A DNA stretch of 51,490 nucleotides from Pedobacter sp. (GTDB lineage Bacteria; Desulfobacterota; Desulfuromonadia; Geobacterales; Pseudopelobacteraceae). The notes under the pieces were generated by a model. That model was not told the DNA's origin. It searched no databases and saw only the letters and a program-made list of their open reading frames with translations. The position numbers were made by a program, and so were the translations under genes. Below, one piece after another: positions 25,452-43,877 of the stretch. The first letter of the stretch is position 1, and every line of letters begins with the position of its first letter. The stretch lies in NCBI GenBank assembly GCA_041672425.1, contig JBAYZR010000001.1, forward strand, positions 1 through 51,490, read 5' to 3'.

Positions 25452-26231
25452 ATGTATCTTGAGCTAGTCGACAGTTTAGCTGCAGAAGGCCGCTCATGTT
25501 TCAGTTACCAGGAATTTCTGAAGCTGTCCGGTTCTTCTGAGATTGCGGTCAAATCGGCGTTGCATCGCCTGCAGAAAAAAGGCGAGATAGCAATGCCGTA
25601 CCGTGGCTTTTACGTCATTCTGTTGCCAATGCACCGGATAATTGGTTGCGTACCCCCAGCCCAGTTTATCCCGCATCTCATGGCACATTTGGGAGAGGTC
25701 TATTATACGGGACTCCTGAGTGCAGCGGAATATCATGGAGCTGCTCACCAGAGGCCGCAGGTCTTTCAAGTCATGGTGGCAAAGGTCCGCAGACCGATCA
25801 CCTGCGGCAATGTCAGGGTCGAGTTTGTCTTTCGGAAGAATGCTGCAGAAATACCAACTGAGTTGCGAAATACATCAGCCGGGACCATTAAAGTGGCAAC
25901 ACCTGAGGCAACTGCCCTTGATGTGGTCGGCTACGTCAATCATTCTGTAGGCCTGGATAATGTTGCAACTATCTTGATTGAATTAGCGGAACGAATCGAT
26001 CCCAAGCGACTTGTCGAGGTCGCCGAACTGTCTCCTGTTTCATATGCACAGAGGCTCGGCTATTTGTTGGAACTGATTGGTGAAAAGGAACTGGCAGCAC
26101 CTCTTGTTGACTATGTTCGTTCGAAACGGCCAATCCCGACAGCTTTAACACCAAGGATAAGTACCAAGGGAGCCAAGAGGGATCGCCGGTGGCAGGTTTA
26201 TGTAAATACTGAGGTTGATCCGGATCTTTAA
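25452..26231 (+). CDS. AbiEi-family (type IV TA) antitoxin / transcriptional regulator
   Basis: 259 aa. The N-terminal wHTH-like FSYQEFLKLSGSSEIAVKSALHRLQKKGEIAMPYRGFYVI is the AbiEi pattern. No AbiEii nucleotidyltransferase gene follows. Confidence 0.6.
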   Translation: MYLELVDSLAAEGRSCFSYQEFLKLSGSSEIAVKSALHRLQKKGEIAMPYRGFYVILLPMHRIIGCVPPAQFIPHLMAHLGEVYYTGLLSAAEYHGAAHQRPQVFQVMVAKVRRPITCGNVRVEFVFRKNAAEIPTELRNTSAGTIKVATPEATALDVVGYVNHSVGLDNVATILIELAERIDPKRLVEVAELSPVSYAQRLGYLLELIGEKELAAPLVDYVRSKRPIPTALTPRISTKGAKRDRRWQVYVNTEVDPDL

Positions 26232-26291: not shown

Positions 26292-28667
26292 ATGAGTAAC
26301 GAAGCCGATACCTGTCGAAAGTTTGTGCTGCCGAAGCTGGTTGATGCCGGTTGGGACAACGAACCTCACCGTATCAACGAGCAGATTACCTTTACCGATG
26401 GCCGTATTGTTCTCGCGGGCAACAAGGTCAAGCGTCGTCCCCAGAAACGGGCCGACTACCTGCTTCGTTATACCCGAGATTATCTAATTGCCGTTGTCGA
26501 GGCCAAGCCCGATTACCAGTCAGCCGGGGATGGTTTGCAGCAGGCCAAGGAATACGCCGAGATTCTGGGTATCAAGTTTGCCTATGCCACCAACGGCATC
26601 GAGATTATTGAGTTTGATTATATGACCGGCCAGGAACAAGTATTGACTGCGTTCCCGCCACCTGAGGAACTTTGGCAGCGACTGCAAAGCTCTCAGGCAT
26701 TCTCCCCCGAATCCGCGCAACGCATTCTCTCACCTTACTATCATCACAGCGGCAAGAGCCCCCGCTACTATCAGGAAATCGCCATCAATCGGGTCGTACA
26801 GTCGGTTTTGCAGGACAAGAAAAGAATCCTGCTGACTATGGCCACCGGCACCGGCAAAACCGTGGTTGCCTTCCAGATCTGTTGGAAACTCTGGAGCGCC
26901 CGCTGGAACGCCACCGGCGAGCACCGTCGCCCCAAGATTCTGTACCTTGCCGACCGCAATATCCTGGTTGATGACCCCAAGGACAAGATTTTTGCGCCTT
27001 TCGCCGATGCCCGCTGGAAGATCGAGAACGGCGAGGCCAACAAAAGCCGTGAGATGTACTTCGCCATCTACCAGTCGCTGGCCAAGGATGAACGGCGACC
27101 GGGGCTCTACAAGGAGTACAGGCCTGACTTCTTCGACCTGATCATCGTAGATGAATGTCACCGGGGAAGTTCACGCGACAACAGCAACTGGCGGGAGATC
27201 CTGGAGTATTTCACCCCGGCATTTCAGTTGGGGATGACCGCCACACCGTTGCGCGAAGACAACCGGGATACCTACCTCTACTTTGGCAATCCTATTTACC
27301 AGTACAGCTTGCGACAGGGCATCGACGACGGCTTTCTGGCTCCCTATCGAGTCCATCGCATTATTACTGACTTCGATGCTGCAGGTTGGCGTCCGAGCAA
27401 GGGAGAACTGGATCGCTATGGCCGGGAGATACCAGACGAGGAATACCAGACCAAGGACTTCGAGCGGGTTGTCGCCCTAAAGGCCCGTACGGAAGCTATA
27501 GCCTGCCACCTTAATGACTTTCTGAGAAAGACTGATCGCTTTGCCAAGACTATCGTCTTCTGTGTTGACCAGGATCATGCGGACGAGATGCGGCGGGCAC
27601 TCACCAACCTTAACCAGGACCTGGTAAGTCAGTACCCGGATTACGTCTGTCGGGTGACATCGAATGAGGGCGACATAGGTCGTGGGCATCTCGGCAGGTT
27701 TCAGGAACTGGAGACCGACACCCCGGCCATCCTCACCACCTCGCAGATGCTGACCACCGGCGTCGATGCTCCTACCTGCAAAAATGTCGTCCTGGCCCGC
27801 GTGGTCGGTTCCATGTCGGAGTTCAAACAGATTATTGGCCGTGGCACCCGTGTCAGGGACGATTACGGAAAGCTCTGGTTCAGCATCCTTGATTATACTG
27901 GCAGCGCTACAAGGCTCTTTGCCGATAGTGATTTTGACGGAGACCCTGCTCTGGTCAGCGAAGAGAAGATCGATAAGGCCGGCGCTACCTACGAGACGAC
28001 CATCATAGAGGAAACTCCTGTTGTGGAAGATGGCGGCGTTCAGGATGACTACGGCCCGGCGGGAGTGGTCATTGATGACGGCGCAAAAGAACCCCGCAAG
28101 TACTTTGTCGATGGCGGACAGGTAGCAATTGCCGCCCATCTGGTCTATGAGCTGGACCCGGACGGCAAACAGCTGCGGGTCGTCAAGTACAGCGACTATG
28201 CCGCCGACAAGATACGCACTCTTTTTCCCGGCGCAATAAGGATGCGCGAACAGTGGGCCAACCCCAGGGAACGGGCTGAAGTTATCAGTCAGCTTGAGGA
28301 GCGTGGGATCAGCTTCAACGAACTTGCCGAATCAGTCGGCCAACCGGAAGCCGACCCCTTTGATCTCCTCTGTCATCTTGCCTTTAACGCACCGCTACGG
28401 ACCCGCCGCGAGCGGGCCGAACGGTTGAAGCATGACCGGAAGGATTTCTTCGATCACTACAGCCCCGAGGCCAGGGGCATCCTAGAAGAACTGCTGGAGA
28501 AATACGCCCAGCATGGAACGGCGCAATTCGTCGTGCCTGATATTTTGAAAGTGCCGCCAATATCTGAGCGTGGGAATGTGATTGAGATTGCCGGGTACTT
28601 CGGCGGGGCGGAAAAACTTCGGGAAGCGGTGAATGAACTGCAAACGCTTCTCTATTCGGGATTCTAA
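26292..28667 (+). CDS. hsdR: Type I restriction enzyme R subunit (EcoEI-type C-terminal domain)
   Basis: 791 aa. The N-terminal nuclease region reads MSNEADTCRKFVLPKLVDAGW...ADYLL...VVEAK. Helicase motifs MATGTGKT and IVDECHR are present. The C-terminus is DLLCHLAF...AEKLREAVNELQTLLY. Confidence 0.92.
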   Translation: MSNEADTCRKFVLPKLVDAGWDNEPHRINEQITFTDGRIVLAGNKVKRRPQKRADYLLRYTRDYLIAVVEAKPDYQSAGDGLQQAKEYAEILGIKFAYATNGIEIIEFDYMTGQEQVLTAFPPPEELWQRLQSSQAFSPESAQRILSPYYHHSGKSPRYYQEIAINRVVQSVLQDKKRILLTMATGTGKTVVAFQICWKLWSARWNATGEHRRPKILYLADRNILVDDPKDKIFAPFADARWKIENGEANKSREMYFAIYQSLAKDERRPGLYKEYRPDFFDLIIVDECHRGSSRDNSNWREILEYFTPAFQLGMTATPLREDNRDTYLYFGNPIYQYSLRQGIDDGFLAPYRVHRIITDFDAAGWRPSKGELDRYGREIPDEEYQTKDFERVVALKARTEAIACHLNDFLRKTDRFAKTIVFCVDQDHADEMRRALTNLNQDLVSQYPDYVCRVTSNEGDIGRGHLGRFQELETDTPAILTTSQMLTTGVDAPTCKNVVLARVVGSMSEFKQIIGRGTRVRDDYGKLWFSILDYTGSATRLFADSDFDGDPALVSEEKIDKAGATYETTIIEETPVVEDGGVQDDYGPAGVVIDDGAKEPRKYFVDGGQVAIAAHLVYELDPDGKQLRVVKYSDYAADKIRTLFPGAIRMREQWANPRERAEVISQLEERGISFNELAESVGQPEADPFDLLCHLAFNAPLRTRRERAERLKHDRKDFFDHYSPEARGILEELLEKYAQHGTAQFVVPDILKVPPISERGNVIEIAGYFGGAEKLREAVNELQTLLYSGF

Positions 28668-28714
28668 TTCTGGGATATTGATTTATACTGCAAACGGTAA
28701 AAAATGAGGTTTTT

Positions 28715-28789
28715 GTAGGGGCGATACCTCGTGTTCGCCCGCCTTTGGGTGGTGGTGCCCCCGGGGCGAACACAAGGTATCGCCCCTAC
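28715..28789. repeat. Large palindromic element (26-nt arms, 23-nt spacer)
   Basis: GTAGGGGCGATACCTCGTGTTCGCCC ... GGGCGAACACAAGGTATCGCCCCTAC. The arms differ at one position. Confidence 0.8.
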
Positions 28790-28962
28790 GAAACAACATC
28801 AACATGTCTTTGAAATACGCAAAACCAGGCGGTCAAAAGGAATATTACTCGGTTTCCCGAGCAATTTCGTTTTCAGCTTACACGACTGGAAACCGATCAA
28901 CTGGTCACAAATTGTGACCGGTTCAGCAATCTGAAACATTCCAGCTCGTTGCCATATACGTT

Positions 28963-29020
28963 TTCTTATTATCGATGATGACATTTATCACATTGGTGCA
29001 TCGCTGAAAGACTTGGGGAA
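28963..29020 (+). repeat. 58-bp direct repeat, left copy (3' gene fragment ...IIDDDIYHIGASLKDLG)
   Basis: 57/58 identical to 30324-30381. Confidence 0.85.
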
Positions 29021-29123
29021 TATCAGGTGGTGGCATGCGGTGCTTTTGTCCAACCATTTTCTGAAATGATATGTATTATGGTAAATAATTGACTAAAATG
29101 TATCTGAAGCGTATGGTCAGCCC

Positions 29124-30314
29124 ATGGATATTTCAACAATTCTCCAACTGAATGAAATTGCCCTGGCGCAAGGAAAGTCGCACCAGCGTAAACGATATGT
29201 GTTTCAGAAGATTTTCGACGACACCGGCAAGCACCAGATTGGCCTTGTCGGACCTCGTGGTTCGGGGAAAACCGTAATTCTGAAACAGCTTCTGGCTCAT
29301 TTTGAGGATACCGCCTGCTACATCTCGCTGGATGCTGTTGAGACTGGTGGCCTGTTCCAAGCCATTCAGACCCTCCATGAAAAATACAAATTCTCTCTTT
29401 TCCTCATTGATGAAATACATCATGAAAAACAGTATGCACGGGAGCTGAAAAAAGCGTACGACTTCATGGAAGTGCGCATCGTTTTTTCCAGTTCCGTCGC
29501 CCTGTCGCTCCATGAAACCGCCTACGATCTATCCAGAAGGGTAAATCTGGTCGCCATCAATCCCTTCAGTTTTCGGGAATTCCTCTATTTCACCAAGGAA
29601 CTCGAACTGCCCTCACTGTCTGTCATGCAACTCTTGGAGAAGCAATGGGACGCAGCTCATATTCGCCAGGAAATCCATTTCGAAAGCTTTCTGAAAGGCG
29701 GGCTGTTCCCCTTTGCTCTCGAAGAGCCAAACATACTACCGCTCCTGGGAAACATCCTTGACAAAATCATTACCGGCGACATTCCGCTGATCGGCAGGCT
29801 GCTGACAGACGAAATTCCCATTTTGCACAGGATGGTGCGCTTTATTGGCTCTTCGCCCCCGGACGGAATCAATTATTCATCACTCTCGAACAACCTGAAA
29901 ATCACCAAATATAAGGCTGAGCAGTATGTGCATCTTCTTGAACAGGCATTTGTGTTGAAATGCGTCATGCCTGTCGGGACAAATGTCATGAAAGAGCCGA
30001 AAATACTGCTGCGCCTGCCGTATCGGCTGTTGTTTCAACCGTTTGAGAATGCAATCGGCGCCATCAGGGAAGAATTTTTTGCGGAAATGATGATCTGTAA
30101 AGGAATCTCCTTCAACTATCTGAAATCGACAAGAGGGGCCAAGACCCCTGATTACCTGGTGCAATCCGATACGGAATCGTATGTTATCGAAATAGGAGGC
30201 CCCGGCAAGGGTCGTGAACAATTCAAAGGATTTGACGGAAAGAAGAATCTGATTCTTGCCCACGGCAACGAAACCACCGGAATAAAACGCCCCCTATTCC
30301 TGATAGGGTTTTAA
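29124..30314 (+). CDS. AAA+ ATPase of the AAA_14/DUF4143 (COG1373-like) family
   Basis: 396 aa with Walker A GLVGPRGSGKTVIL and Walker B LFLIDEIH. AINPFSFREFL is the typical PLSF-x-EF segment. Confidence 0.75.
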   Translation: MDISTILQLNEIALAQGKSHQRKRYVFQKIFDDTGKHQIGLVGPRGSGKTVILKQLLAHFEDTACYISLDAVETGGLFQAIQTLHEKYKFSLFLIDEIHHEKQYARELKKAYDFMEVRIVFSSSVALSLHETAYDLSRRVNLVAINPFSFREFLYFTKELELPSLSVMQLLEKQWDAAHIRQEIHFESFLKGGLFPFALEEPNILPLLGNILDKIITGDIPLIGRLLTDEIPILHRMVRFIGSSPPDGINYSSLSNNLKITKYKAEQYVHLLEQAFVLKCVMPVGTNVMKEPKILLRLPYRLLFQPFENAIGAIREEFFAEMMICKGISFNYLKSTRGAKTPDYLVQSDTESYVIEIGGPGKGREQFKGFDGKKNLILAHGNETTGIKRPLFLIGF

Positions 30315-30323
30315 ACTGCTATC

Positions 30324-30448
30324 TTCTCATTATCGATGATGACATTTATCACATTGGTGCATCGCTGAAAGACTTGGGGAAGAGATGGTTCGCCTTTTCG
30401 AAGATGGATGTAAGCGCAATTGAAATGTTGCAACGGGTGAAGATATGA
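30324..30448 (+). pseudogene. 3' end of an unidentified gene (right copy of the 58-bp repeat plus its natural tail)
   Basis: Reads ...IIDDDIYHIGASLKDLGKRWFAFSKMDVSAIEMLQRVKI*. The left copy at 28963 diverges after KDLG, so the ATPase segment sits inside this remnant. Confidence 0.5.
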
Positions 30449-30481
30449 ATGGGTGGGTGAGTTTGAGATTTGAAGGATAAT

Positions 30482-31015
30482 ATGGGATTTTCCATAAATG
30501 GTTCCTCAAATATCCGAAACTCTAACCTGACCCCAGAGGTTTTCCCATTCGGATTTCTAGAAGAAATTTTAGGGAAAGCGATCTTTGCGTTTACAGCAAC
30601 GCGATCATTTGAAGAGGCCGAGATTGCTGAGGCCTACGACGAGTGGCTTCCCAAGCTTGAGCGTGCTCTTATAGATCCTCTGGGAAATCTGATTGATGCT
30701 TACGGAAATGCGGTGCGAGACAATTCGGGCGCTGTAATAGAGAATTTTGATGAGATCCTTGGCGATCTACGAAAAGCTTCACAAATGCGGAACATTCTGT
30801 GTCACGGATCATGGAGATTGCCGGACACGAGCGGAGCTTCGATTCCCTTCTTCGTGAATCGTAAAAAGGAGATTGTTGACAGCGCAATGGATTGTCAGTT
30901 CCTTGATCAGGCGCAGAAACACACGGCCGATCTGGCATGTGTGGTTATTAACACCGTTACCCAAATGGGTTTGCAGTTTCCTGGGTCGGCTGGTCCAGGC
31001 AAGACAATTTGGTAA
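30482..31015 (+). CDS. HEPN-like protein (putative RNase)
   Basis: ATG at 30482 after an AAGGA RBS. LRKASQMRNILCHGSW contains an R-N-x3-H motif, the HEPN Rx4-6H consensus, in a helical context. Confidence 0.45.
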   Translation: MGFSINGSSNIRNSNLTPEVFPFGFLEEILGKAIFAFTATRSFEEAEIAEAYDEWLPKLERALIDPLGNLIDAYGNAVRDNSGAVIENFDEILGDLRKASQMRNILCHGSWRLPDTSGASIPFFVNRKKEIVDSAMDCQFLDQAQKHTADLACVVINTVTQMGLQFPGSAGPGKTIW

Positions 31016-31058
31016 TCCATTATCATAAATCCGAGAACCGTAAGAAAATGGAGGAAGT

Positions 31059-31592
31059 ATGGCTGTTCTGGTTGAGGGTATTTCCGTGATAATACGAGCA
31101 AGTGCAATTCATCAGAAATTTCCCGGAGGCTGGGACGCATTCAAACATATTGTTCCCAATCAAACATTGTGTGCCGACAATGAGATTGTTCGTATAGGTT
31201 TCATGAATCCAAATGACATTGAATCTTTCATAAAGAACCTTGAAAAAGAAGGGCTTGAATTTTTGAAAGCTGGAGAGGCTATTGATATTGCAGTTGCTGA
31301 CCAGATGAGAGGATTAACTTCAAAGTGTAGCTGGGCAGAATTCGGCCGTATCAATTTAGGTTCTAAACGAAATCAGGAGGTTGGAGCCTGCCGATTAGTT
31401 GGCAGCCAAGTCATGCAAGTTGTAACTCCACCTGACTGGAAATTTGATGGTTCATTGAGTCAAACATATGGTTTCGTTCCATCTGGACAAAATCAAACTG
31501 GCTTAAAATTCCTCAGGCATGAAAACGATCTTGATGTCTACTACGATTCACTTTCAGAGAAAGAGGTTTACGTGGGGCGAACCGGAGAGTGA
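31059..31592 (+). CDS. Hypothetical 177-aa protein
   Basis: ORF 43 nt downstream of the HEPN-like gene on the same strand. No motif recognised. Confidence 0.45.
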   Translation: MAVLVEGISVIIRASAIHQKFPGGWDAFKHIVPNQTLCADNEIVRIGFMNPNDIESFIKNLEKEGLEFLKAGEAIDIAVADQMRGLTSKCSWAEFGRINLGSKRNQEVGACRLVGSQVMQVVTPPDWKFDGSLSQTYGFVPSGQNQTGLKFLRHENDLDVYYDSLSEKEVYVGRTGE

Positions 31593-31707
31593 GTCCAAAC
31601 CACTCGGCGGCAGACGGTCTTCGCTTACGCTACGCCGCTGCGCCTCGACCACGTTGTGCCCCAAGAGACAATAAAAATCTTCAAATTTCTGGTTTCCCGA
31701 GGCCCAC

Positions 31708-34700
31708 ATGCCGATAGATCTACAAGACACAGGCTATGTAGATAATGGAATAGAAGAAAATGGCTATGATGATACCGTATTTATTCCCGCACCTACTAAT
31801 GACCTCTTCAATGGTCAAGTGCCAATAGAGCAAGCGATACAAAGGCTCCGCACAAAACTACTTGATATTTCATCAAAAAACCGTCTTATCAGCTACAGAT
31901 ACCCAAAAGGCAAATCAATTCAATTTGTCAATTCCCCGAACCTAAATCTCATATTCAATCGCCTTACCGAAAGCAAGCCTATTGGCATCAGCTTCGTTCA
32001 AGACCCTCCTGTAGGTAGCTATACACAGAAAAAGCCCGATGTAAAAGTCATTGCGGAATCTCTTGGGATAGATGTCGATATAGATTTCCCTCCCGAATCA
32101 TGCGCTCCCAGTACCCATAGGCGCTTGTCTAACTTACAGGCCCTTTTTTACCCCCAAGATCTTGATAAAATATGCCGCAAAATTGCAAGCGAGGCTCGTA
32201 CAGTAATCGAGGAAACCGGCACAAATATGCTGTTCCTTATTTTCGGATTCCTTGAATTCTATGATTCCGACGATTCAGAGAAACCGATTTATGCACCATT
32301 ACTCGCTGTTCCTGTCACCCTAAATCGTGGGTCAATTGACCCAATAACCAGAACCTATTTGTATTCGATAAATTATTCAGGTGAGGATGTTCATTCAAAT
32401 CAGACTTTGAATGAAAAGATGAAGCAGGATTTCACTCTTAATTTGCCTGAATATAACGATGAAGAAGAAATTGGTGAATACTTTACTGCAATCTCCCAGG
32501 CTGTCAAAAACAAGAATCGGTGGAGAGTCAGATATCAGCTGACTTTGGGGTTCTTATCTTTTGGCAAGTTGGCTATTTGGGCAGACCTCGACCCTAAAAA
32601 GTGTTCTGGGCTTCTGACTCACCCATTATTGAATGAAATATTTTCTGGCGGCAATGGGGGTGGTGTCGGACAATCCGCAGAAGATTACGAGATTGATAAC
32701 CATTATCAGGGCGAACTCCCGCTAATCTATGATGCCGATTCATCACAGCATAGCGCAATAATAGATGTTATGGACGGGAAGAATATTGTAATCAATGGAC
32801 CTCCCGGAACCGGAAAATCGCAGACAATTACGAACATTATTGCATCAGGGTTGAACGCTGGTAAAACTGTTCTGTTTGTATCAGAAAAGCTTGCGGCCCT
32901 TGAAGTTGTACGGCATCGACTGAATCACGCAAATCTTGGTCATTTTTGTTTAGAACTGCACAGTCACAAAACTCAGAAGAAAAAGCTGTTGAGTGACCTT
33001 CAAGACCGTATCGATGCCTATTTTGTTCCCCCTCAACAATTGCAAAACCGGATAACAACGCTCAACCGCCACAAGAAAGACCTCAATCGGTATGTTGAAT
33101 TAATTTCTAGTCGAATTGGTAACGAACTTGGCCTAACTGTCCATGAAATCTTCTGGAAAACAGAACGATTTCGACAAATGAACTGTGAGATGGTCAATAC
33201 CCTCACATCGTTGAACTACCAAAAGGCTGAAAACTTAACTTTAGATGAAATTGCCGATTTACGTGCAAAGGTTGAAGTTCTAGGGCAATTATATTCGACA
33301 GTCAAAACCTACGATTCCAATCATCCATGGTGGGGGTTTTTCCCAAAGCCCCTTGCTCCAGGCGATGATTCAGCAATAAGTCTTGTAATAAACGAGGCCA
33401 AGACTCTTGCTGAAGCACTTTATATTTTGACAATTGAGTTCCAAGAACGGGTTTCATTTTTGCAGGAACCATCACTTGATACGCTATTGTCTTTCAATCG
33501 TCTTGTTCAAGAACTATCGACTCCACCAGATAACCTGAGAAGTGAAATATTTCCCCGCGTATTTAATGCTGAAGACCCGCTTGGTAAGCATAACAGGGGT
33601 CTTTTGAATGGCGTAATTAGCACAGTGAAAAACGCACGGGAGCTTAAGGAACAAGCAGAGAAAAATATAGTTCCTAATTGCGAATTGAGCTATGAAACCG
33701 CAGGACCTATTCTGGAGAGTTGCAAGAGTCAACTATCAAAAACCGCTTTTAGCACACCACTTCATATTGTTGCTGAATTCGTATCAGATGCCGAAAATGC
33801 CCTATCTCAATTCAAGAACGTTATCTCAGAATACAATTACATTTATCAGTCTATACCCGGTTCAAACACTGAAAAGCTGGAAAAGTTTGATTCAAGGTTT
33901 AATGCAACATTGCCACTCACCCTTGAAGAACAGCCGGAATGTCTTATCAGAGAAGGTTCGAGATTTCTTTCAGAAGAAATAGAAAGCCTGAAACAATCTT
34001 TTGAGCGAGTATCTGCAATTGCACATCACAGGGAATTGAAATTTGATGGGACTCCAACAGAAGTTGAGAATTTGGGACGTGGAGAAGGTATCGCAGAAAT
34101 TCTTCCTGGAGTCAGAATAGACGAATCGATACTTGAAAAAACAAGACAGGCCGCAAAATACTATCTATCAGACTTGCCTATCGGTGAGACAGATAGACGG
34201 CAACAGGGACTACATGACCTGAATGACCGGGTTAACCGTTTACTCTACGAAATCGGTGGATATGCCCAAAACCTGTATTTGACGTTTGACGGTACTCAGA
34301 AATCACTCGAATACCTTGCGACAATAAGCAAGATATCATCAGCTGCACCTACAGACCTCCTAGATTACCGTCACGCACCTCTTGCACATCCAATGTCGTT
34401 AGAGCTGATACCAAAGGCTGAAGAGGCGTTACAGTCCGAATTATTACAACGACAGGCACTTACTAACGCGTTCCATCTTGATGCTTTACCTGAATTGAGC
34501 ACGTTGAAGAGTACCATGCTGACGTTTAGACGTGGTGATAGCCTTTTCAATATATTCAACAGTGACTGGAGAGCTGCAAAGAAGCTCTTTAATAACCTGT
34601 CCAAGAATAAGACAAAGCATAAGGCATCTGAATATGAAGAGAAAATATCAAAAATAATCAGCTGGCTTGAGTACAGAACGGCACTTACTTCCAACGAAGA

Positions 34701-35034
34701 CTTCAAAAGGTCGTTTGGCCCATTGTTCAGAGGTCTTGATACAGACATCTCCAAAATTAAACGGTTGCACAACTGGTATATGGAGAGCATGGCAGAGTTG
34801 CTTAAGCATCCAGGGCTTATAGATAATGTCGATTTATCTACTATGAGTTCACAGACCATTAACCAGGTGGGGGCATTATCCGCAAGGATACAGGTAATTG
34901 TAGATGAACTTAATACCAGTTTGACCGAATGCAGGGATTTTCTTGGAGAAATCGCAGTACAGATGGACTCCGTTTTAGGCAGTCTGGATGGAATGAATAT
35001 AGCAAGAAAATCAGCGAGATTGCTGATGCTTTGA
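31708..35034 (+). CDS. DUF4011 / Upf1-like SF1 helicase giant protein, N-terminal part (frameshifted)
   Basis: LRTKLLDISSKNRLISYRYPKGKSIQF and MLFLIFGFLEFYDSDD fit the DUF4011 pattern. Walker A is INGPPGTGKSQTITN. The frame switches near 34960-34990 into the ORF starting at 34929. Confidence 0.75.
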   Translation: MPIDLQDTGYVDNGIEENGYDDTVFIPAPTNDLFNGQVPIEQAIQRLRTKLLDISSKNRLISYRYPKGKSIQFVNSPNLNLIFNRLTESKPIGISFVQDPPVGSYTQKKPDVKVIAESLGIDVDIDFPPESCAPSTHRRLSNLQALFYPQDLDKICRKIASEARTVIEETGTNMLFLIFGFLEFYDSDDSEKPIYAPLLAVPVTLNRGSIDPITRTYLYSINYSGEDVHSNQTLNEKMKQDFTLNLPEYNDEEEIGEYFTAISQAVKNKNRWRVRYQLTLGFLSFGKLAIWADLDPKKCSGLLTHPLLNEIFSGGNGGGVGQSAEDYEIDNHYQGELPLIYDADSSQHSAIIDVMDGKNIVINGPPGTGKSQTITNIIASGLNAGKTVLFVSEKLAALEVVRHRLNHANLGHFCLELHSHKTQKKKLLSDLQDRIDAYFVPPQQLQNRITTLNRHKKDLNRYVELISSRIGNELGLTVHEIFWKTERFRQMNCEMVNTLTSLNYQKAENLTLDEIADLRAKVEVLGQLYSTVKTYDSNHPWWGFFPKPLAPGDDSAISLVINEAKTLAEALYILTIEFQERVSFLQEPSLDTLLSFNRLVQELSTPPDNLRSEIFPRVFNAEDPLGKHNRGLLNGVISTVKNARELKEQAEKNIVPNCELSYETAGPILESCKSQLSKTAFSTPLHIVAEFVSDAENALSQFKNVISEYNYIYQSIPGSNTEKLEKFDSRFNATLPLTLEEQPECLIREGSRFLSEEIESLKQSFERVSAIAHHRELKFDGTPTEVENLGRGEGIAEILPGVRIDESILEKTRQAAKYYLSDLPIGETDRRQQGLHDLNDRVNRLLYEIGGYAQNLYLTFDGTQKSLEYLATISKISSAAPTDLLDYRHAPLAHPMSLELIPKAEEALQSELLQRQALTNAFHLDALPELSTLKSTMLTFRRGDSLFNIFNSDWRAAKKLFNNLSKNKTKHKASEYEEKISKIISWLEYRTALTSNEDFKRSFGPLFRGLDTDISKIKRLHNWYMESMAELLKHPGLIDNVDLSTMSSQTINQVGALSARIQVIVDELNTSLTECRDFLGEIAVQMDSVLGSLDGMNIARKSARLLML

Positions 35035-38024
35035 GAGAAATTACCTCTTTCCTTAAAAACTACATAAAGCCAGATGTTTCCCCGGTTCGAGCAGTTGATG
35101 TATTGAATGCGAAATTAGAATTATCATCTGCCGTTGTTGATTTTGAAGCCCTGAATAATGGCATCAGGTTAATTCATGACAAGTATGAGCATTATCTTCC
35201 CGGAATATCCAAAATCCCTTGCAACAACTGGCGCGAGTATCTTTCTCAGCTTTCAAAACTGGCCAGCACAACCGCTTGTTTAGCCAGCTCAATACTTGAG
35301 TATGCAGACAGCAAGTGTGATTATTCAAAAGTAAGGGCATTCCTGGTTGCAAAGCTTGAGCTTGATAACGTGTTGTCAAGATTTGCCCCGTGCCCTGACA
35401 AAACAGAAACCGCAAGCTGGAAGGAATACCATTCTATAGCGGCTTCCCGAATTGCCACAGCTTCAGAGCTGGTCAATATGCTATTGCCTGTTGGAGTTGT
35501 AGGCAAGACGGCCAAAGAGATGGTAGACGGCCTGATTTCGAAGAAAAGATCCATCGATACTATTCAGGAAATCCATAACAACAAAGCAGTTATGGTCATG
35601 TTGCAAGACCTCTTTGACGGTATGGATACTGATTTAGAGGCTCTTTCAGCAACACTGGGGTGGGGCGAAGAGATTTCAAGAAAACGTAGCATACAGGGAA
35701 CGCCACTTCTTTCATATTTGTTGAGCCAAAATGCCGTAGAGAACCTAGAAGATGCAAAAATACAACTACGAAAAATAGTGGAAACGCGCCAAAGGGTTCT
35801 GGCTAAACTCACTGAATTAAAGGAATTTGGAGAGTTTGACGCAAAAGAATGGAATTGTTCAGAAGACGATTATGCTCATTTGTTTCTCAAGCGAATAGAG
35901 TGTGCTGCAACCAACTTGGATGCTGTCTTAACCTGGTCAAGATACATTCATCAACGCTCAGTCTGTCATGATAACGGCCTGAAGACTTTTGTAAATCACG
36001 TTGAGAACAAAGTAGTACCTGTTGATAATATTGGCGACATCTTTGAATACATCGTTTACCGCTCAATCGGCAGGAAAATATACCGGCAATACCCGGAACT
36101 TGAGGGCTTTAGTGGTGAAAAACATGACAAAATACGAGCAGAATTTGTTGCACTTGATAAGGAAATCATCAATCTAACCGGCAAAAGCTTTGCCTATGAT
36201 ATCGACAAGTCAAAGTGTGTTCCTGATGGGGTTTCCAGCTATAAGGTTTCTGAATTGACGGATATGCACTTATTAAGGAAAGAAATTAATAAAAAGACCA
36301 AACATATTTCAATCCGACAGCTGATACGACGCGCAGGGGATGCAATTCAGGCACTGAAACCTTGTTTCATGATGGGGCCGCTATCCGTTGCACAGTACAT
36401 ACAGCAAGGCGCAATTTCTTTCGATATGATAGTGATGGACGAAGCTTCACAACTCAGACCGGAAGAATCGTTAGGTGCTATTGCGAGAGGTTCACAGTTA
36501 ATCGTTGTTGGAGACCCCAAACAGCTCCCGCCTACCAATTTCTTTGACCGCCTGGCTGATGATAGCGAGGACGATGATGAAAGTGAAGCTGCATCAGTTT
36601 TTGCAGGCACAGAGAGTATCCTTGATATCTGCCAGCAACTGTTTCATCCGGTTCGAACGCTTAAATGGCATTACCGGTCTCAGCATGAATCCTTGATAGC
36701 ATTCTCGAACCACAATTTCTACAATGGAAAGCTGATTGTATTCCCCTCACCATTTGCCAAAAACAACCGGCTGGGACTCCGCTACCGTTACATTAAGAAC
36801 GGGGTTTACAAAGACCGTCAGAACATGGTTGAAGCACAACGGGTGGTGGATGCTGCAATTGAGCACATGATGAAATTCCCTGAAGAGTCACTGGGAATAG
36901 TGACGCTCAACCAGACACAGCGCGACCTTATCGAAGACTTAATGGACAAAAAAGTACGTAATATCGATGAAGCCCAGTCATTTATTTCGAATTGGGAAGA
37001 GGAAGGATGGCCGTTTTTCGTCAAAAACCTCGAAAATGTACAGGGTGACGAACGGGATATCATCTTCATCTCCACAACTTTCGGAAAGCCAGTAGGAGCT
37101 GATAAGGTTCGTCAGAACTTTGGCCCTATAAGCCGACCGGATGGCTGGAGGCGGCTTAACGTTCTATTTACTCGTGCCCGTAGAAAAATAGAGCTTTTCA
37201 CATCAATGTTGCCAGAGGATATAATCATTGCGGCAGGTACACCAGCAGGGACAAGAGCCTTAAGGGATTACCTGGATTTTGCCAAGCGTGGGGTACTCGC
37301 TTCGACAGAGGTAACGGGACGTGAGGAAGACAGCGATTTTGAGATTTCTGTAGGCGATATGTTACGGAATCGAGGATACGAAGTTGTGCCTCAAGTTGGA
37401 GTCGCGGGCTTTTTTATTGACCTGGCTGTACGAAATCCCGACCGCCCTGGTGAATTCCTGGCAGCTGTTGAGTGCGATGGTGCCAGCTACCATTCCAGTG
37501 CTTCAGCCAGAGACCGCGACCGAATCAGGCAGAGTATCCTTGAGTCTCTTGGCTGGAGGGGCCGCATTTGGCGTATCTGGTCAACTGATTGGTTCTACAA
37601 TCCAAGAAGGGAATCAGAAAAACTAATAAACTTCCTTGAAGAACGAAGGGAAATTTCCAAAACAGAGCAAATTGACTATGAGATCGAAGAGGTATTTGAA
37701 GAGGATGATACCGTAATTATTCAGCCAGCGCCAGAAGAAGCAGCTGATACTTTAGAACCATCTCTGCCCGTTGCAAATGAGGAACTTTATGTTGAAGTCG
37801 GAGATTTAGTCACCTATTGCCATGTAGATAACCCAGAAGAACGCAAAACAGCGACGATTGTTGAAACCGAAAGCAATATACAAAAACACTTTGTCAACGA
37901 AAACACCCCGCTTGCTAAAGCCATGCTGGATTCTGCCGTAGGCGATACTGTAGGAATTGTCGTAGCCGGTGGTCATCCTAAAGTAATCAAAATTCTGAAA
38001 ATTCAGCGGCAGGGGGAGGGCTGA
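34929..38024 (+). CDS. Same giant protein, C-terminal part: helicase motifs II-VI, DUF559/Vsr-like endonuclease fold, DUF3320-like tail
   Basis: Helicase motifs IVMDEASQ, VVGDPKQLPPT, WHYRSQHESLIAFSNHNFYNGKL and NVLFTRARRKIELFTS. These are followed by FFIDLAVRNP...AVECDGASYHSSASARDRDRIRQSILESLGW...IWSTDWF. Confidence 0.75.
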   Translation: MQGFSWRNRSTDGLRFRQSGWNEYSKKISEIADALREITSFLKNYIKPDVSPVRAVDVLNAKLELSSAVVDFEALNNGIRLIHDKYEHYLPGISKIPCNNWREYLSQLSKLASTTACLASSILEYADSKCDYSKVRAFLVAKLELDNVLSRFAPCPDKTETASWKEYHSIAASRIATASELVNMLLPVGVVGKTAKEMVDGLISKKRSIDTIQEIHNNKAVMVMLQDLFDGMDTDLEALSATLGWGEEISRKRSIQGTPLLSYLLSQNAVENLEDAKIQLRKIVETRQRVLAKLTELKEFGEFDAKEWNCSEDDYAHLFLKRIECAATNLDAVLTWSRYIHQRSVCHDNGLKTFVNHVENKVVPVDNIGDIFEYIVYRSIGRKIYRQYPELEGFSGEKHDKIRAEFVALDKEIINLTGKSFAYDIDKSKCVPDGVSSYKVSELTDMHLLRKEINKKTKHISIRQLIRRAGDAIQALKPCFMMGPLSVAQYIQQGAISFDMIVMDEASQLRPEESLGAIARGSQLIVVGDPKQLPPTNFFDRLADDSEDDDESEAASVFAGTESILDICQQLFHPVRTLKWHYRSQHESLIAFSNHNFYNGKLIVFPSPFAKNNRLGLRYRYIKNGVYKDRQNMVEAQRVVDAAIEHMMKFPEESLGIVTLNQTQRDLIEDLMDKKVRNIDEAQSFISNWEEEGWPFFVKNLENVQGDERDIIFISTTFGKPVGADKVRQNFGPISRPDGWRRLNVLFTRARRKIELFTSMLPEDIIIAAGTPAGTRALRDYLDFAKRGVLASTEVTGREEDSDFEISVGDMLRNRGYEVVPQVGVAGFFIDLAVRNPDRPGEFLAAVECDGASYHSSASARDRDRIRQSILESLGWRGRIWRIWSTDWFYNPRRESEKLINFLEERREISKTEQIDYEIEEVFEEDDTVIIQPAPEEAADTLEPSLPVANEELYVEVGDLVTYCHVDNPEERKTATIVETESNIQKHFVNENTPLAKAMLDSAVGDTVGIVVAGGHPKVIKILKIQRQGEG

Positions 38025-38101
38025 GGGACGTACTTGAAAAGTTGATTTGAGAGGGCAAAAGGGTCAGTTGGGAAAGTTTTCAAGAGTGTCGCCTTACGGG
38101 A

Positions 38102-38232
38102 CCGGATATCTTGAAAGGCCGCATATCTCGGAACGGGGCAACTTCATTGAAATAGCCAACTATTTCGGCGGCGCGGAAAAGCTTCGGGAAGCGGCAAATG
38201 AGCTGCAAACGCTGCTCTATGCGGGATTCTAA
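38102..38232 (+). pseudogene. hsdR 3'-end remnant no. 2
   Basis: Encodes ...ISERGNFIEIANYFGGAEKLREAANELQTLLYAGF*, homologous to the last residues of the intact HsdR at 28667. Confidence 0.85.
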
Positions 38233-38553
38233 GTTTGCGATATTGATATTGATGAATAAGTGGTTCCATAGGTTGATTCGGGAAAATCAACCGTTGTCAT
38301 ATCTGCATATATTATGAAGTTTCAGTGCTACTGGATCGAGATAAATGGGTGTTGAACAATGCGAAATACTTTATGAACACAGAGTAAATATTCCGTTTGG
38401 ACAGATGACCTGTTTTTGCGCGCGCGTGAACTGCTCAACAATGAGTTGAACAAACCCGATAACAGATCAAATTCAAACCAAGAAACCGAGCGTCCTTGAA
38501 GGCCGCTGAACAAAGCATACTAGAATATCAATTCAAACTAAAATGTGGAGGAG

Positions 38554-40773
38554 ATGATGAGTGTTTGGAGCGTAGATGCTGATGATATTAAAACCGAACA
38601 AGATTTTGAAGAGGTTTTACTTTACAAAACACCATGGATTGATAATTTTCTGGACATGGAAAGAGGAAGTAAATTTATTGTAATAGCAACAAAAGGATTT
38701 GGTAAAACATTTCTACTCAAAGCAAAAAGAATAATGTTTCAAAAAGAGCGAAAAGATATTCAGTGTATTCCTGAAAATAGTTTACTTGACAAACCTGCGG
38801 GTGAGACCATTTTCAGTGCTGAAATGTGTGATTTTTATAGTGGCACATCTAACCACTGGGTAACTATTTGGACGGCATCTATTGTAATAACGGTACTCAA
38901 ACAGTTGGGTAAATTATCCGACGATGATTTAAGCAAGAAATTATCAGTACTAAAGAATAACAACTTAAAAACTGTTACAGACCATTTAGTAAACATTTTG
39001 AAAATGGGGCGTGAAAATTACTTCGAATTAGTTGACAACTATAATGAAAATCTAATTCCTAAGTCAAAGAACATTCATTCACCGATTGCAATATTTATAG
39101 ATAATGTTGATGAATATTTTAAAAAACATATTAATCCAGAGATAATGCGCCCAAGCGATGTTGGTGAAGTATCGCCAACTATCTGGTATTATTCGCAGAT
39201 TGGTTTAATTGAAGCAATATATCAATTACAAAGGTCAAATCACCATTTAAAGGTATTTGCTTCAATTAGAAAAGAAGCAGTTTTAAAACTTAAAGAATTT
39301 GACCCAATGATTCAGCAGTACCTTGGAAGCAGTGTAGATGTTGTTTATTCTCGGCAAGACATCATGGAGATTTTTATAAAAAATATTAAGAAAGATAAAA
39401 ATCTCATTGATGCTTCAATAAAAGAAAATAATCCTATCCAAGCGTTTTTAGGGCTATTGCAAGTAACACATTCATTGTCTCGAGAAAAAGAAAACATCTT
39501 TGATTACATTTACCGCCACACGTTACAAAGACCACGCGATTTCATGGTTATTGGCGCAAGAATATCAGACACGAGACCATTAGATAGAACAGAAGATAAT
39601 TTAAAGATAATAATCAACAAAGCTGCTTCCGATATAGCTACGCAATATATTAATGAAACATTACCGCATATCGATGGCCTTGATTATGACAAACTATTCG
39701 AGCTTATTGACAAAAACATATTAACAAAAAAAGATGTTAATAAAATATGCAGTAAATATAATAGTAATAGTTGCTATGATTCTGACTGTAAATTGTGTGA
39801 TCTTAACCATGTATTTTGTAATTTGTACAAAGCAGGGCTATTAGGTTACATAAGAAAAGATCTTGTCTATGCGTCAAAAATACAAAAATTTGCCTTGCCT
39901 GGCGAATACACGTTTGATCCGAACGGAATATTACCGACATCTCCTTATTATTTTCTTCACCCAATATTAGAGGAAAAAATTCGGTCACTAAATCCAAAAT
40001 TCGAGAAAAACATCGCCAAAATAATAATAGGTTATGATCATCCATGGAACGGGTTGAAGCAAACCACACCCTCGATTTTACCAGACCAATTAAGAGATGG
40101 CACAACAAAAAAAATAGTACTTGTTGCCTGTCATCCAGACGACGAAGTATTATCATCAGGAGCATTGCTTTTGAAGGCAGCGCGCCAGGGTTTTCAAATA
40201 TTCTTGGTTTTGGTTACTCAGGGAGAAAGTAGTGGTAGTTTAAATGCAAAAAATCGAAAAGATGAAGCAAATGAAATTGCACTCAAACTTAACGCCACCA
40301 TTACATTTTTAAACTATTCCAATAATGACCTACTTTGTGACGGCAAAATTGATCTTTCTGAAACAACAAAGGAAGTAGAAAAATTAATTAAAGATATTTC
40401 TCCTGATATTATTGTTTGGCCACACGGAGAATCACCTGACCAACATCAAGATCATGTAACACTCCACAAGGCGATTACAAATATCCAGAAACGTTATAAA
40501 TCTGATCAATGTTGCTGGATTGCAGCACAACCACCTGTTTTCGGTGACAGCGGTTTCAAACCAACGAACTATTTAAAAATTGATGCCGAACTTTTAAAAC
40601 AAAAGTATAGATTGATGAGACTGTATAAATCTGAAAAATTAAAAAAATTCGCGTCATATCAATTCATCAAAACAAAAGCCCTACATTGGGCAAGTGAAGG
40701 TAATTGTAGTTTTGATTATGCTGAACCATTTCAGCTTCATAAAGGCTTTCTACCACTTGAGCTTTTTGTGTGA
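38554..40773 (+). CDS. P-loop NTPase fused to a PIG-L/LmbE-family metal-dependent deacetylase
   Basis: GGAGGA RBS, then ATG at 38554 or 38557. Walker A IATKGFGKTFLL, Walker B IAIFIDNVDE. The C-terminal ~220 aa carry VLVACHPDDEVLSSGA and ESPDQHQDH, the PIG-L zinc-ligand motifs HPDD and HxDH. Confidence 0.7.
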   Translation: MMSVWSVDADDIKTEQDFEEVLLYKTPWIDNFLDMERGSKFIVIATKGFGKTFLLKAKRIMFQKERKDIQCIPENSLLDKPAGETIFSAEMCDFYSGTSNHWVTIWTASIVITVLKQLGKLSDDDLSKKLSVLKNNNLKTVTDHLVNILKMGRENYFELVDNYNENLIPKSKNIHSPIAIFIDNVDEYFKKHINPEIMRPSDVGEVSPTIWYYSQIGLIEAIYQLQRSNHHLKVFASIRKEAVLKLKEFDPMIQQYLGSSVDVVYSRQDIMEIFIKNIKKDKNLIDASIKENNPIQAFLGLLQVTHSLSREKENIFDYIYRHTLQRPRDFMVIGARISDTRPLDRTEDNLKIIINKAASDIATQYINETLPHIDGLDYDKLFELIDKNILTKKDVNKICSKYNSNSCYDSDCKLCDLNHVFCNLYKAGLLGYIRKDLVYASKIQKFALPGEYTFDPNGILPTSPYYFLHPILEEKIRSLNPKFEKNIAKIIIGYDHPWNGLKQTTPSILPDQLRDGTTKKIVLVACHPDDEVLSSGALLLKAARQGFQIFLVLVTQGESSGSLNAKNRKDEANEIALKLNATITFLNYSNNDLLCDGKIDLSETTKEVEKLIKDISPDIIVWPHGESPDQHQDHVTLHKAITNIQKRYKSDQCCWIAAQPPVFGDSGFKPTNYLKIDAELLKQKYRLMRLYKSEKLKKFASYQFIKTKALHWASEGNCSFDYAEPFQLHKGFLPLELFV

Positions 40774-40794
40774 TTTAACAAAGGTGAAAAAACG

Positions 40795-41616
40795 ATGAAA
40801 CCCGTTGAAAACGTATACGAAGTTGCCTTTATACTTCTCAGCTCGGTTGGCGGAGCGGCTGTGATTATTTGGAGCCTTTCATCCTGGCTCGGAAAGGTTT
40901 GGGCTAATCGGATTTTGGAATCTGAAAAAGCCAAATATACTAAAGAACTTGACTCCATCAGACATCAATTTCAGGTCGAACTGAATCGTGTGTCTATCAT
41001 TCATGAAAACCAAAAAATCAGCTTTCGAAACGTAATAATAGCATTAAGTAAAGCAATAAAGGCTTTAGAGCAGGCTTATGACGAAGAATGGTGTCCCATA
41101 AGTGATCGTAAATATGATGAATTGAGGAATATTGTGATCGAAGAATCTCTGTTTCTTGGGAAAGATGGAGAAAATGCATTGGATGTATTTTTGAAGTTTT
41201 TCGGAAAATCAACATATTTTCCAGAAATAGAAATTCAACCAGATCGGATGCTTAGGAACGTTTATGAATACTTGACTTACATCGATGGCAGAATTCGGGA
41301 GTACTTTAGAAAACGAATTGGACTGTCAGACGAAGAAAATCCGCTTTTTGAGGTTTACTTGCTAGACGTTTGTTTAATTCTCAATGACTACCATCCGAAG
41401 GGGAACCGGTTCACCTATGATGAAATCTTTAATTTTGATTTTGACTCTCCTCCATTGGTATTGATTGAAAAATATATATCTAATTTAGATGCACTTAAAG
41501 CAAATATGAAAAAATACATTGAAATAGTTGAGATAGACGACAAAAATAGGAAATTTTACTTTGAAGATCTTTCTAGGATAAGAATGTATTTGAAGCTTAT
41601 ATGTTCCAAGGGATAA
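40795..41616 (+). CDS. Single-pass membrane protein with a helical cytoplasmic domain
   Basis: 273 aa, 21 nt after the previous stop, with an AAAGGTGA RBS. The N-terminal hydrophobic helix is VAFILLSSVGGAAVIIWSLSSWLG. Confidence 0.6.
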   Translation: MKPVENVYEVAFILLSSVGGAAVIIWSLSSWLGKVWANRILESEKAKYTKELDSIRHQFQVELNRVSIIHENQKISFRNVIIALSKAIKALEQAYDEEWCPISDRKYDELRNIVIEESLFLGKDGENALDVFLKFFGKSTYFPEIEIQPDRMLRNVYEYLTYIDGRIREYFRKRIGLSDEENPLFEVYLLDVCLILNDYHPKGNRFTYDEIFNFDFDSPPLVLIEKYISNLDALKANMKKYIEIVEIDDKNRKFYFEDLSRIRMYLKLICSKG

Positions 41617-41747
41617 CGAACGTGTTTGAAAGTAACCGGTCGCCAAACACAGCCCGTTGAACTAATCCGCTTCGCGGAAAGTGCAAATCAAGCAAGTTAC
41701 AAGTGAAAAAACTCACCAACCACTCAACAATCATTGGGGATCGGTAT

Positions 41748-42458
41748 ATGCACCCATTAACATATTTTGTTGACGAATCGATCAAGGTCTTTGATGGAGA
41801 TGAAATTTGTGCGCTAATTGCAATTAAGACAATAGATTCTTCCAAGCTGAATTCACTTATCAGAGATTCAATAGCTAGAATTATTTCTGACCCAGTATTA
41901 AGTCAGCATAGCGGAATAAACGGCACATGGATTCCGCACTACTGTAATGACCACCCAATTGAAGTGCACCCGCAATTCTTGCGAGACATCTCCCAAATGC
42001 CATTTGAGGCATATATTGTATTTGGTCAAAAAAATAAGTTTCCGCAACTAGATGAGTACGACTGGTATGATAATCTGATAAAAATCCTATTTACGTTCAG
42101 GTTGTCTGCTGACAAGGGGCGCATTGATAGAGTCGTGTACGAGCAGCATGATTCCAAACTGGGCAAGAGGGAAATCCACCTACAGAAGTTATTTCAGTCA
42201 ATGACTCAGAAGGATGCACAAAGACGAAGAACCGAGACAACCAGCATACTGGTTAAGTCTGCTGGCAAAGATGTACTGCCTCTATGTTTGTCAGACTACA
42301 TCGGTGGAAGCTTTATGTCGTATCTGTGCGAGACTGACAAGTCAAAGCTGGGGCCAAAACGAAGAGGATTTGAATTAGTAGCAAAAAAGATACGCTGGAT
42401 CAAGAATGCCGACAGTAGCGAAATATATACATCAAAACATCCATTTTATAAGGATTGA
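41748..42458 (+). CDS. DUF3800-like protein
   Basis: ATG at 41748 after GGGGA. The track ORF starts at a GTG at 41703. The N-terminal YFVDES and C-terminal PLCLSDYIGG resemble the DUF3800 DESG and LQ-x-AD motifs, recalled from memory. Confidence 0.45.
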   Translation: MHPLTYFVDESIKVFDGDEICALIAIKTIDSSKLNSLIRDSIARIISDPVLSQHSGINGTWIPHYCNDHPIEVHPQFLRDISQMPFEAYIVFGQKNKFPQLDEYDWYDNLIKILFTFRLSADKGRIDRVVYEQHDSKLGKREIHLQKLFQSMTQKDAQRRRTETTSILVKSAGKDVLPLCLSDYIGGSFMSYLCETDKSKLGPKRRGFELVAKKIRWIKNADSSEIYTSKHPFYKD

Positions 42459-42483
42459 CAGGCATGCTCCAAACTGCGAATAT
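42455..42483 (+). promoter_or_regulatory. Sigma70-like promoter candidate overlapping the DUF3800-like gene stop
   Basis: TTGACA (42455-42460), a 17-nt spacer, then GAATAT (42478-42483). The predicted start near 42490 coincides with the 5' arm of the RNA stem. Confidence 0.4.
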
Positions 42484-42488
42484 GCAAC

Positions 42489-42574
42489 TGCTGGAGGGCG
42501 TGGGTAAATCGCCTCGGGCGCGAGTCGCGCTCGATTTTCTTCGACACTTTCAATCTTACCTACGTCCTCTGGCA
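42489..42574 (+). ncRNA. Structured RNA candidate (19-bp stem with 4 G-U pairs enclosing a GC hairpin); possible retron ncRNA part or RT leader
   Basis: GCTGGAGGGCGTGGGTAA (42490-42507) pairs with TTACCTACGTCCTCTGGC (42556-42573) through 14 Watson-Crick and 4 G-U pairs, plus one further flanking T-A pair. These four positions would be A-C mismatches on the opposite strand. The inner hairpin is GGGCGCG-AGT-CGCGCTC. Confidence 0.4.
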
Positions 42575-42576
42575 AT

Positions 42577-43506: not shown

Positions 43507-43558
43507 CGGGCTCTCAATGCATTTCCCTCTGGAAGGGTCAACCACATATGAACCAACT

Positions 43559-43606
43559 AAAACGCCGTTAAGCCCTTTATTCTCCAAGGCGTAACGGCGT
43601 TTTTTA
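43559..43606 (+). terminator. Rho-independent terminator after the RT gene
   Basis: AAAACGCCGTTA ... TAACGGCGTTTTTT. Confidence 0.65.
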
Positions 43607-43667
43607 GGAAGGTTGAGGGGGCGTACTTGAAAAGTTGAGTTGAGAGGGCAGTCCCCTTTCTGGACCC

Positions 43668-43877
43668 TTTAGCCTCGAAGCTAGGGCTATTCTCGAAGAA
43701 CTACTGGAAAAATACGCCCAGCATGGCACCGCCCAATTTATTGTGCCGGATATCCTCAAAGTACCCCCTATTTCGGAACGGGGCAATGTCATTGAAATAG
43801 CCAACTATTTCGGCGGCGCGGAAAAGCTTCGGGAAGCGGTAAATGAGCTGCAAACGCTGCTCTATGCGGGATTCTAA
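43668..43877 (+). pseudogene. hsdR 3'-end remnant no. 3
   Basis: Encodes SLEARAILEELLEKYAQHGTAQFIVPDILKVPPISERGNVIEIANYFGGAEKLREAVNELQTLLYAGF*. An in-frame TGA lies just upstream and there is no start codon. Confidence 0.9.

Follow-up and report, generated by a model that had tools for sequence, protein, structure and literature searches.

Three co-directional genes stand side by side between the hsdR and hsdM genes of a type I restriction-modification locus, and the question they raise is whether they form one defence system or came together by separate acquisitions. The window analysed is a stretch of 51,490 nucleotides (nt) from Pedobacter sp. (contig JBAYZR010000001.1), in which the interval 30482-38024 is a low-GC stretch with hsdR on one side and hsdM on the other. 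It holds a HEPN-like gene, a gene for a protein of 177 amino acids (aa), and a giant helicase gene. With a probability of roughly 80%, we read these as three independently acquired genes lying next to one another in a variable defence-gene insertion site. The giant gene is taken as a stand-alone, single-gene helicase-nuclease of the Hhe/PDC-S37/ProA kind that is probably inactivated here. The arrangement given in a preliminary description of this DNA was borne out by the listing of open reading frames (ORFs), in which the third gene is split in two:

30482-31015, + strand: HEPN-like ORF, with an alternative TTG start at 30470
31059-31592, + strand: 177-aa gene
31708-38024, + strand: giant helicase gene, as two ORFs, 31708-35034 (1108 aa) and 34929-38024 (1031 aa)

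The neighbourhoods of homologues argue for independent acquisition. With one genome taken per species, a scan by the helicase alignment returned 337 relatives, of which 72 were kept; three more were added to give 75 helicase loci (1.43 Mb). In these 75 loci, tblastn with the HEPN-like protein yielded no match (best E 1.9), and the 177-aa protein yielded a single weak one, some 5 kb away from the helicase and on the other strand (36% over 69 aa, E 3e-7). Homologues within both small families are 60-95% identical, and true copies would therefore not have escaped the search. Sampling from the other side gave the same picture: the 98 HEPN-like loci sampled (a metagenome scan supplied 80, 466 kb) contained neither a 177-aa homologue nor a helicase, and 17 loci of the 177-aa family neither a HEPN-like homologue nor a helicase. 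ORF clustering around the helicase found no conserved neighbour, with no ORF family lying within 4 kb in more than eight of about 60 loci; the helicase is thus a stand-alone gene, as expected of an Hhe-like single-gene system. The HEPN-like family likewise showed no conserved neighbour and no partner antitoxin in its sampled loci.

The closest relative of the helicase gene by DNA (locus L008, 89% nt identity) is similarly confined. Its homology spans 31696-38012, beginning 12 nt ahead of the start codon and ending 12 nt short of the stop, and its flanking genes are unrelated to those of the window; it lies near TIR, methyltransferase, and restriction genes. The preliminary description had proposed that a DUF4011 helicase and a small HEPN protein form a new module, here of three cooperating genes, and had named as evidence against this the finding that the small proteins are not conserved neighbours of DUF4011 helicases. 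Since that is what the 75 helicase loci show, the proposal falls by its own standard. Cooperation as a three-gene defence system would suit the shared direction, the short gaps (43 and 115 nt), and the position in a defence island, but we hold it to be extremely unlikely: co-occurrence is absent from the 75 helicase, 98 HEPN-like, and 17 177-aa-family loci, the closest helicase relative has the helicase ORF alone in common with the window, the window HEPN-like copy is truncated, and the three segments differ in their nearest relatives and homology boundaries. Recognizing the combination "DUF4011 helicase + HEPN + 177-aa" as a chance adjacency in a decaying insertion site averts a false lead.

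The giant gene is one gene encoding about 2106 aa once a single frameshift is repaired. Its domains were assigned from separate searches with the halves encoded by its two ORFs:

31855-32421, + strand: DUF4011 (Pfam PF13195, first-half residues 50-238, E 4e-33)
32737-32928, + strand: N-terminal lobe of a superfamily 1 (SF1) helicase with Walker A, GPPGTGKS (Pfam, first-half residues 344-407, E 2.9e-5)
34663-35500, + strand: helical central region with the W-x-E-Y segments SWLEY, GWNEY, NWREY, and SWKEY
34973-34977, + strand: frameshift site, one base missing between 34976 and 34977, after the T4 run 34973-34976
36405-37190, + strand: C-terminal part of the SF1 helicase, comprising the end of AAA_11 (Pfam, second-half residues 493-536, E 2e-8) and AAA_12 (residues 563-754, E 1.8e-15), with motifs DEAS, VGDPKQLPP, and QGDERD
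37338-37637, + strand: MTES_1575 nuclease, restriction-endonuclease-like and of Vsr/DUF559 type (PF18741, second-half residues 804-903, E 2e-35)
37791-38006, + strand: GreA/GreB C-terminal-like domain at the extreme C-terminus (PF01272, second-half residues 955-1026, E 4e-9)

The DUF4011, AAA_11/AAA_12, and Vsr/DUF559-type assignments of the preliminary description thus stand; the DUF3320-like tail does not, as Pfam gave no DUF3320 match in the giant protein and placed the GreA/GreB C-terminal domain there instead. All helicase and nuclease motifs agree with the family consensus. The three W(N/R/K)EY repeats that had been noticed in the middle of the protein are real, and a fourth copy can be added, so that the repaired protein carries SWLEY at residue 986, GWNEY at 1095, NWREY at 1175, and SWKEY at 1238. 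An alignment of the nonoverlapping segments around residue 1095 and residue 1175 scores z=8.6 relative to shuffled sequences, and a family alignment of 10 sequences shows the tryptophan of GWNEY, NWREY, and SWKEY to be invariant or almost so. The W-x-E-Y segments are a trait of the entire helicase family.

Judged from sequence, the giant gene is a member of a large clade that is sister to Hhe and ProA, because more than 7,700 relatives were retrieved with the repaired protein and, among the 120 listed, nearly all are single ORFs of ~2,030-2,340 aa with an identical set of Pfam domains. The closest of these (P0241, 2101 aa) is 91% identical in amino acid sequence. Scores against four defence models, for the two window halves and for intact relatives, were as follows:

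PADLOC PDC-S37 (PDLC05009): halves 482 + 802 bits; intact relatives 1266-1280 bits
PADLOC Hhe (PDLC02194): halves 385 + 620 bits; intact relatives 1001-1016 bits
NCBIfam Hhe (NF042953): halves 593 + 863 bits; intact relatives 1430-1458 bits
NCBIfam ProA (NF058533, "anti-phage protein ProA"): halves 415 + 745 bits; intact relatives ~1150 bits

The PADLOC PDC-S37 and Hhe models are shown with no curated cut-off; the NCBIfam equivalog cut-offs are 2000 bits for Hhe and 1500 bits for ProA. These strong matches support the view, already put forward in the preliminary description, that the protein is a putative defence-type Upf1-like helicase-nuclease. Hhe is said to have been first reported by Gao et al. 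(2020, in Science) as a single-gene system. The giant protein shares with Hhe the single large polypeptide without a conserved partner, the DUF4011 N-terminus, the split SF1 Upf1-like helicase with Walker A and B, the MTES_1575/Vsr-type nuclease, and most of the profile (positions 2-745 and 915-1697 of 1797). It differs in staying below the equivalog cut-off (~1450 bits versus 2000, in the window copy and intact relatives alike), in being ~300 aa longer, in its GreA/GreB-like tail, which does not align to the end of the Hhe model, and, in the window, in a reading frame broken by the 1-nt deletion at 34976/34977. PDC-S37, a bioinformatic candidate family not known to have a published mechanism, is the top-scoring PADLOC model, with ~84% of its 1550-position profile covered. 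With ProA the protein shares the helicase-nuclease core, profile positions 805-1809 aligning to second-half residues 19-1010, and this alignment extends further toward the C-terminus than that of Hhe; it differs in that the score (~1150-1160 bits) lies under the 1500-bit cut-off and the first ~350 profile positions are unmatched, the alignment beginning at position 357.

Kinship with Mokosh, which the preliminary description had raised together with Nhi, is distant. The Upf1-like SF1 helicase core is shared (PADLOC MkoA 68.7 bits, MkoC 48.2 bits), but these matches of 48-69 bits are limited to the helicase motifs, and the architecture and nuclease type are unlike; membership in Mokosh was rejected since the full-length MkoA/MkoC architecture is not present. 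The PADLOC scan gave no reportable match to Nhi, although it is uncertain whether the library includes an Nhi model. Among other helicases of this type, one 1808-aa variant is shorter than the ~2,100-aa clade and has no GreA-like tail. Separately, a shorter (~1800-aa) DUF4011 helicase sub-clade (L050, L052, L054, L078, and relatives) has conserved co-directional neighbours in 5-7 loci, with a ~240-300-aa ORF 30-71 nt upstream and a ~572-586-aa ORF ~60 nt downstream, and may represent a multi-gene variant.

The frameshift noted in the preliminary description is a one-base deletion after the T4 run at 34973-34976. In nucleotide alignments of the window gene with two relatives, L008 and L019, it is the sole frame-disrupting difference in 6.3 kb; the missing base is G in L008 and A in L019, and unbroken reading across the lesion gives ...QMDSVL(R)QSGWNEY.... 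After repair, the ratio of nonsynonymous to synonymous substitution rates (dN/dS) against L008 is 0.109 upstream of the lesion and 0.089 downstream, and because the downstream value is as low as the upstream one, purifying selection acted on the second half of the gene until a short time ago. Either a very recent mutation or an error in assembly accounts for the lesion, and unless the deletion is a sequencing error, the gene as sequenced is a very recent pseudogene. Programmed -1 frameshifting was considered and rejected: the site has no slippery heptamer, and nearly all the listed relatives have the gene as one ORF.

An assembly or sequencing error, with the helicase gene intact and active in the organism, has a sizeable minority chance of being correct. 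Such an error would agree with the lack of a second disrupting lesion over 6.3 kb, with the position next to a T4 run, with the low dN/dS on the downstream side, and with catalytic motifs that all match the family consensus. Yet the T4 homopolymer is short, and what was lost is a G or A following it, not a T; a recent genuine mutation predicts the same dN/dS; and neighbours in the same cassette are clearly decayed (fragments of an ORF6N/RhuM-type gene, as well as the truncated HEPN-like gene). A recent, genuine inactivation is the account we prefer.

The decay of the HEPN-like gene is plain. Members of its family have ~195 aa and share a conserved N-terminus (...FPTHxHExxFWESLGRAVATFGF...), and the window copy matches the family only from FGFLEE on (residue ~20-23, DNA position 30546), so that coding homology covers 30546-31015 only. 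The missing first ~31-36 codons were found nowhere in the window. Because family homology begins this late and the N-terminal codons are absent, the window ORF is a 5'-truncated remnant whose start at 30482 (or the TTG at 30470) is fortuitous. The R-N-x3-H motif pointed out in the preliminary description is present as MRNILCHG, with RNILCH at residues 103-108 of the window ORF, and it is conserved in homologues: the R, N, C, and H of RNxxCH show little or no variation in 51 close homologues, and 65 representatives at <=50% identity all have the R, with at least 90% conservation of N, C, and H. The assignment to HEPN itself stood only in part. The R-N-x-x-C-H motif fits the Rx4-6H signature of HEPN superfamily ribonucleases (RNases), and the mainly helical secondary structure in an AlphaFold2 model of a full-length homologue is likewise shared with them; the window copy differs in having lost the N-terminal helix region, and the family in having no partner antitoxin. 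Sequence and profile searches with the HEPN-like family gave no significant match to HEPN Pfam models or PDB entries. A HEPN-type RNase is plausible but unproven.

Homologues of the HEPN-like gene occur in diverse settings: alone beside a nucleotidyltransferase gene (Geobacter), near DndB (Leptolyngbya), on two conjugative plasmids, beside an Imm40-like gene, and on nine viral or prophage contigs. On one conjugative plasmid (L091, Sinorhizobium fredii plasmid pSF83666d, 1401-5564), a homologue of ~56-60% identity lies directly downstream of genes for an AAA-family ATPase and an ATP-dependent helicase, which could be a different local association. In a 448-aa homologue (P0369), a DarT1-associated NADAR antitoxin domain (E 1.5e-88) is fused to the HEPN-like domain; the fusion may be real or may be a gene-calling artefact.

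The 177-aa gene, by comparison, has kept its full length, with 94% identity to its closest homologue (P0121), and its DNA homology unit with the closest relatives is 31035-31598. Its AlphaFold2 model is good (predicted local distance difference test score, pLDDT, 80.4), and the predicted structure has no match in PDB or BFVD. For both small families, profile searches returned nothing significant in PDB sequences, PHROGs, Pfam, NCBIfam, or PADLOC. Homologues of the 177-aa gene follow a HicB-like gene amid core genes, sit in a Smithellaceae array of small ORFs adjoining an integrase, stand beside an IS110 transposase (Methylomonas), or lie alone beside ilv genes. The gene is an intact, solitary, widely transferred, and highly conserved orphan. 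Two small, strongly conserved orphan families that move alone across phyla offer a modest lead.

In some loci (L086, L088-L090 [gene at 6001-6534], and L098), homologues of both small genes are found among strings of short ORFs that share one direction, beside Phage_int_SAM_4 integrases. In layout these strings resemble an integron. For the small genes of the window itself, integron cassettes were considered and set aside since the 43-nt spacer is too short for an attC site.

Several points weigh against our account. The giant protein remains under the equivalog cut-offs of its nearest named families, at ~1456 bits for Hhe (halves summed) and ~1160 bits for ProA. What is said here of Hhe and ProA biology follows database labels, and the anti-phage role of the ~2,100-aa clade is putative. 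The frameshift is known from one assembled sequence, in which a real mutation and an artefact are both possible. The HEPN fold is unconfirmed: the full-length homologue was modelled at a pLDDT of 50.6, too poor for its best Foldseek hit (E 0.42) to carry meaning, and the lone HEPN model match was sub-threshold (HEPN_Swt1, E 0.012) in one distant homologue (P0508). Finally, locus L083, 97% identical in nucleotides over 30546-31070, keeps the same spacer after its HEPN-like gene, then 14 nt from the start of the 177-aa gene, before it diverges. Because this spacer and 14-nt stub are retained, the adjacency of the two small genes predates the split of the window and L083 from a recent common ancestor.

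That ancestral adjacency bears on whether the HEPN-like and 177-aa genes make a two-gene unit (for example, toxin-antitoxin or effector-immunity) that moves independently of the helicase. The identical intergenic region and 14-nt stub of L083 would fit such a unit, as would the 36-nt overlap (31035-31070) of the two homology blocks, which are otherwise separate (30546-31070 for the HEPN-like gene and 31035-31598 for the 177-aa gene). We nevertheless consider it unlikely. The other HEPN-like loci have no 177-aa homologue and the 17 177-aa-family loci have no HEPN-like homologue; with L083 contributing its 14-nt stub only, the number of complete adjacent pairs in the 98 + 17 loci is zero. The 177-aa homologue with 94% identity follows a HicB-like gene instead, and in the window the HEPN-like partner is truncated and the 177-aa gene intact. 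The adjacency in L083 is common history, not a conserved pairing, and the two genes are best read as separate acquisitions.

If the giant protein does serve in defence, it would most likely act alone, as Hhe-like enzymes are thought to. Its domains suggest that the N-terminal DUF4011 region, together with the WxEY repeats of the helical centre, could form a sensor or regulator, that the ATP-driven Upf1-like SF1 motor would load onto and translocate along invading nucleic acid, and that the Vsr-type PD-(D/E)xK nuclease would then cleave it; through its GreA-C-terminal-like tail, the enzyme may be tethered to RNA polymerase or may recruit it. A GreA-like tail and a Vsr-type nuclease also occur in repair and transcription factors, and the defence role of the ~2,100-aa clade is putative, which together leave room for a housekeeping DNA-repair or transcription-coupled helicase. 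We judge a housekeeping role very unlikely given the patchy distribution across phyla, the variable contexts (between hsdR and hsdM in the window, near TIR, methyltransferase, and restriction genes in L008), the anti-phage families that are its closest models, and a dispensability sufficient to allow a frameshift in the window.

A single-gene defence helicase-nuclease thus remains the preferred reading, and a bolder version of it can be framed, tentatively and with considerable doubt: the ~2,100-aa clade, with its extra WxEY helical repeats and its scores under the Hhe and ProA equivalog cut-offs, would be a distinct single-gene defence family whose GreA-like tail docks RNA polymerase, and the two small orphans would be new autonomous mobile functions. 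If true, docking through this tail would couple the attack to transcription of the invading DNA. That a well-populated Hhe-like clade has this tail points to a connection, open to testing, of a defence helicase-nuclease with RNA polymerase.

The surrounding locus is itself composite, with the following features:

17656-19173: tRNA-Glu, then a tyrosine integrase with an Arm-binding domain, at the island boundary
25452-26231: AbiEi antitoxin-type gene, directly upstream of hsdR
26292-28667: hsdR of the type I restriction-modification locus, before the cassettes
29124-30314: AAA_14/DUF4143 ATPase gene, PADLOC PDC-S01-like
38545-43506: cassette 2, four genes
43968-47027: cassette 3, a 1019-aa protein with N-terminal SIR2 (ThsA/Dsr2-like) and C-terminal TPR repeats
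46972-48531: hsdM of the type I restriction-modification locus, after the cassettes

The restriction-modification locus lies inside an island that adjoins the tRNA-Glu and integrase. GC content across the cassettes (29000-47000) is 0.32-0.47, versus 0.49-0.59 in most of the flanking sequence, a drop consistent with foreign origin. The 3' end of hsdR is present in three copies of 132-222 nt (28461-28685, 38119-38250, and 43671-43895), all of which run to the stop codon and which delimit three cassettes. Copies 2 and 3 are 89% identical to each other and 79% identical to the resident end, and a 33-nt repeat lies just upstream of each (38025-38057 and 43618-43650). Because these two copies are more alike and have this repeat in common, they suggest stepwise gain of cassettes through recombination at the hsdR 3' end.

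Cassette 1, which ends with the three genes considered above, is decayed. Its ORF6N/RhuM-type gene is in fragments, interrupted by the AAA_14/DUF4143 ATPase gene, and a 58-nt direct repeat (98% identical) in 28790-29020 and 30324-30430 brackets the latter. This repeat codes for the C-terminus of the ORF6N/RhuM-type protein, and upstream are ORF6N-like fragments with frameshifts; the ORF6N/RhuM gene thus appears to have been destroyed by insertion of the ATPase gene. After the ATPase region come, in order, the truncated HEPN-like gene, the 177-aa orphan, and the frameshifted helicase. Cassette 2 encodes a 742-aa protein in which a Sll1717-type P-loop ATPase is fused to a PIG-L deacetylase domain, a 273-aa ORF without matches, and then, besides a DUF3800 protein, a reverse transcriptase of retron type with RT_VII-A2 as its top PADLOC model; an Rfam scan found tRNA only and no retron noncoding RNA. 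The end of the SIR2-TPR gene of cassette 3 overlaps the hsdM start at 46972. With copies of the hsdR 3' end bounding its cassettes, the locus illustrates how defence genes accumulate and decay between hsdR and hsdM.

A promoter and terminator scan gave counts no higher than chance. Two further features of the locus can be recorded. No AbiEii gene was recognised beside the AbiEi antitoxin-type gene (25452-26231). Directly after the hsdR stop lies an inverted repeat (28711-28793) with 30-nt arms, 93% complementary, around a 23-nt spacer, for which a terminator, a REP-like element, and a recombination site are all candidates.

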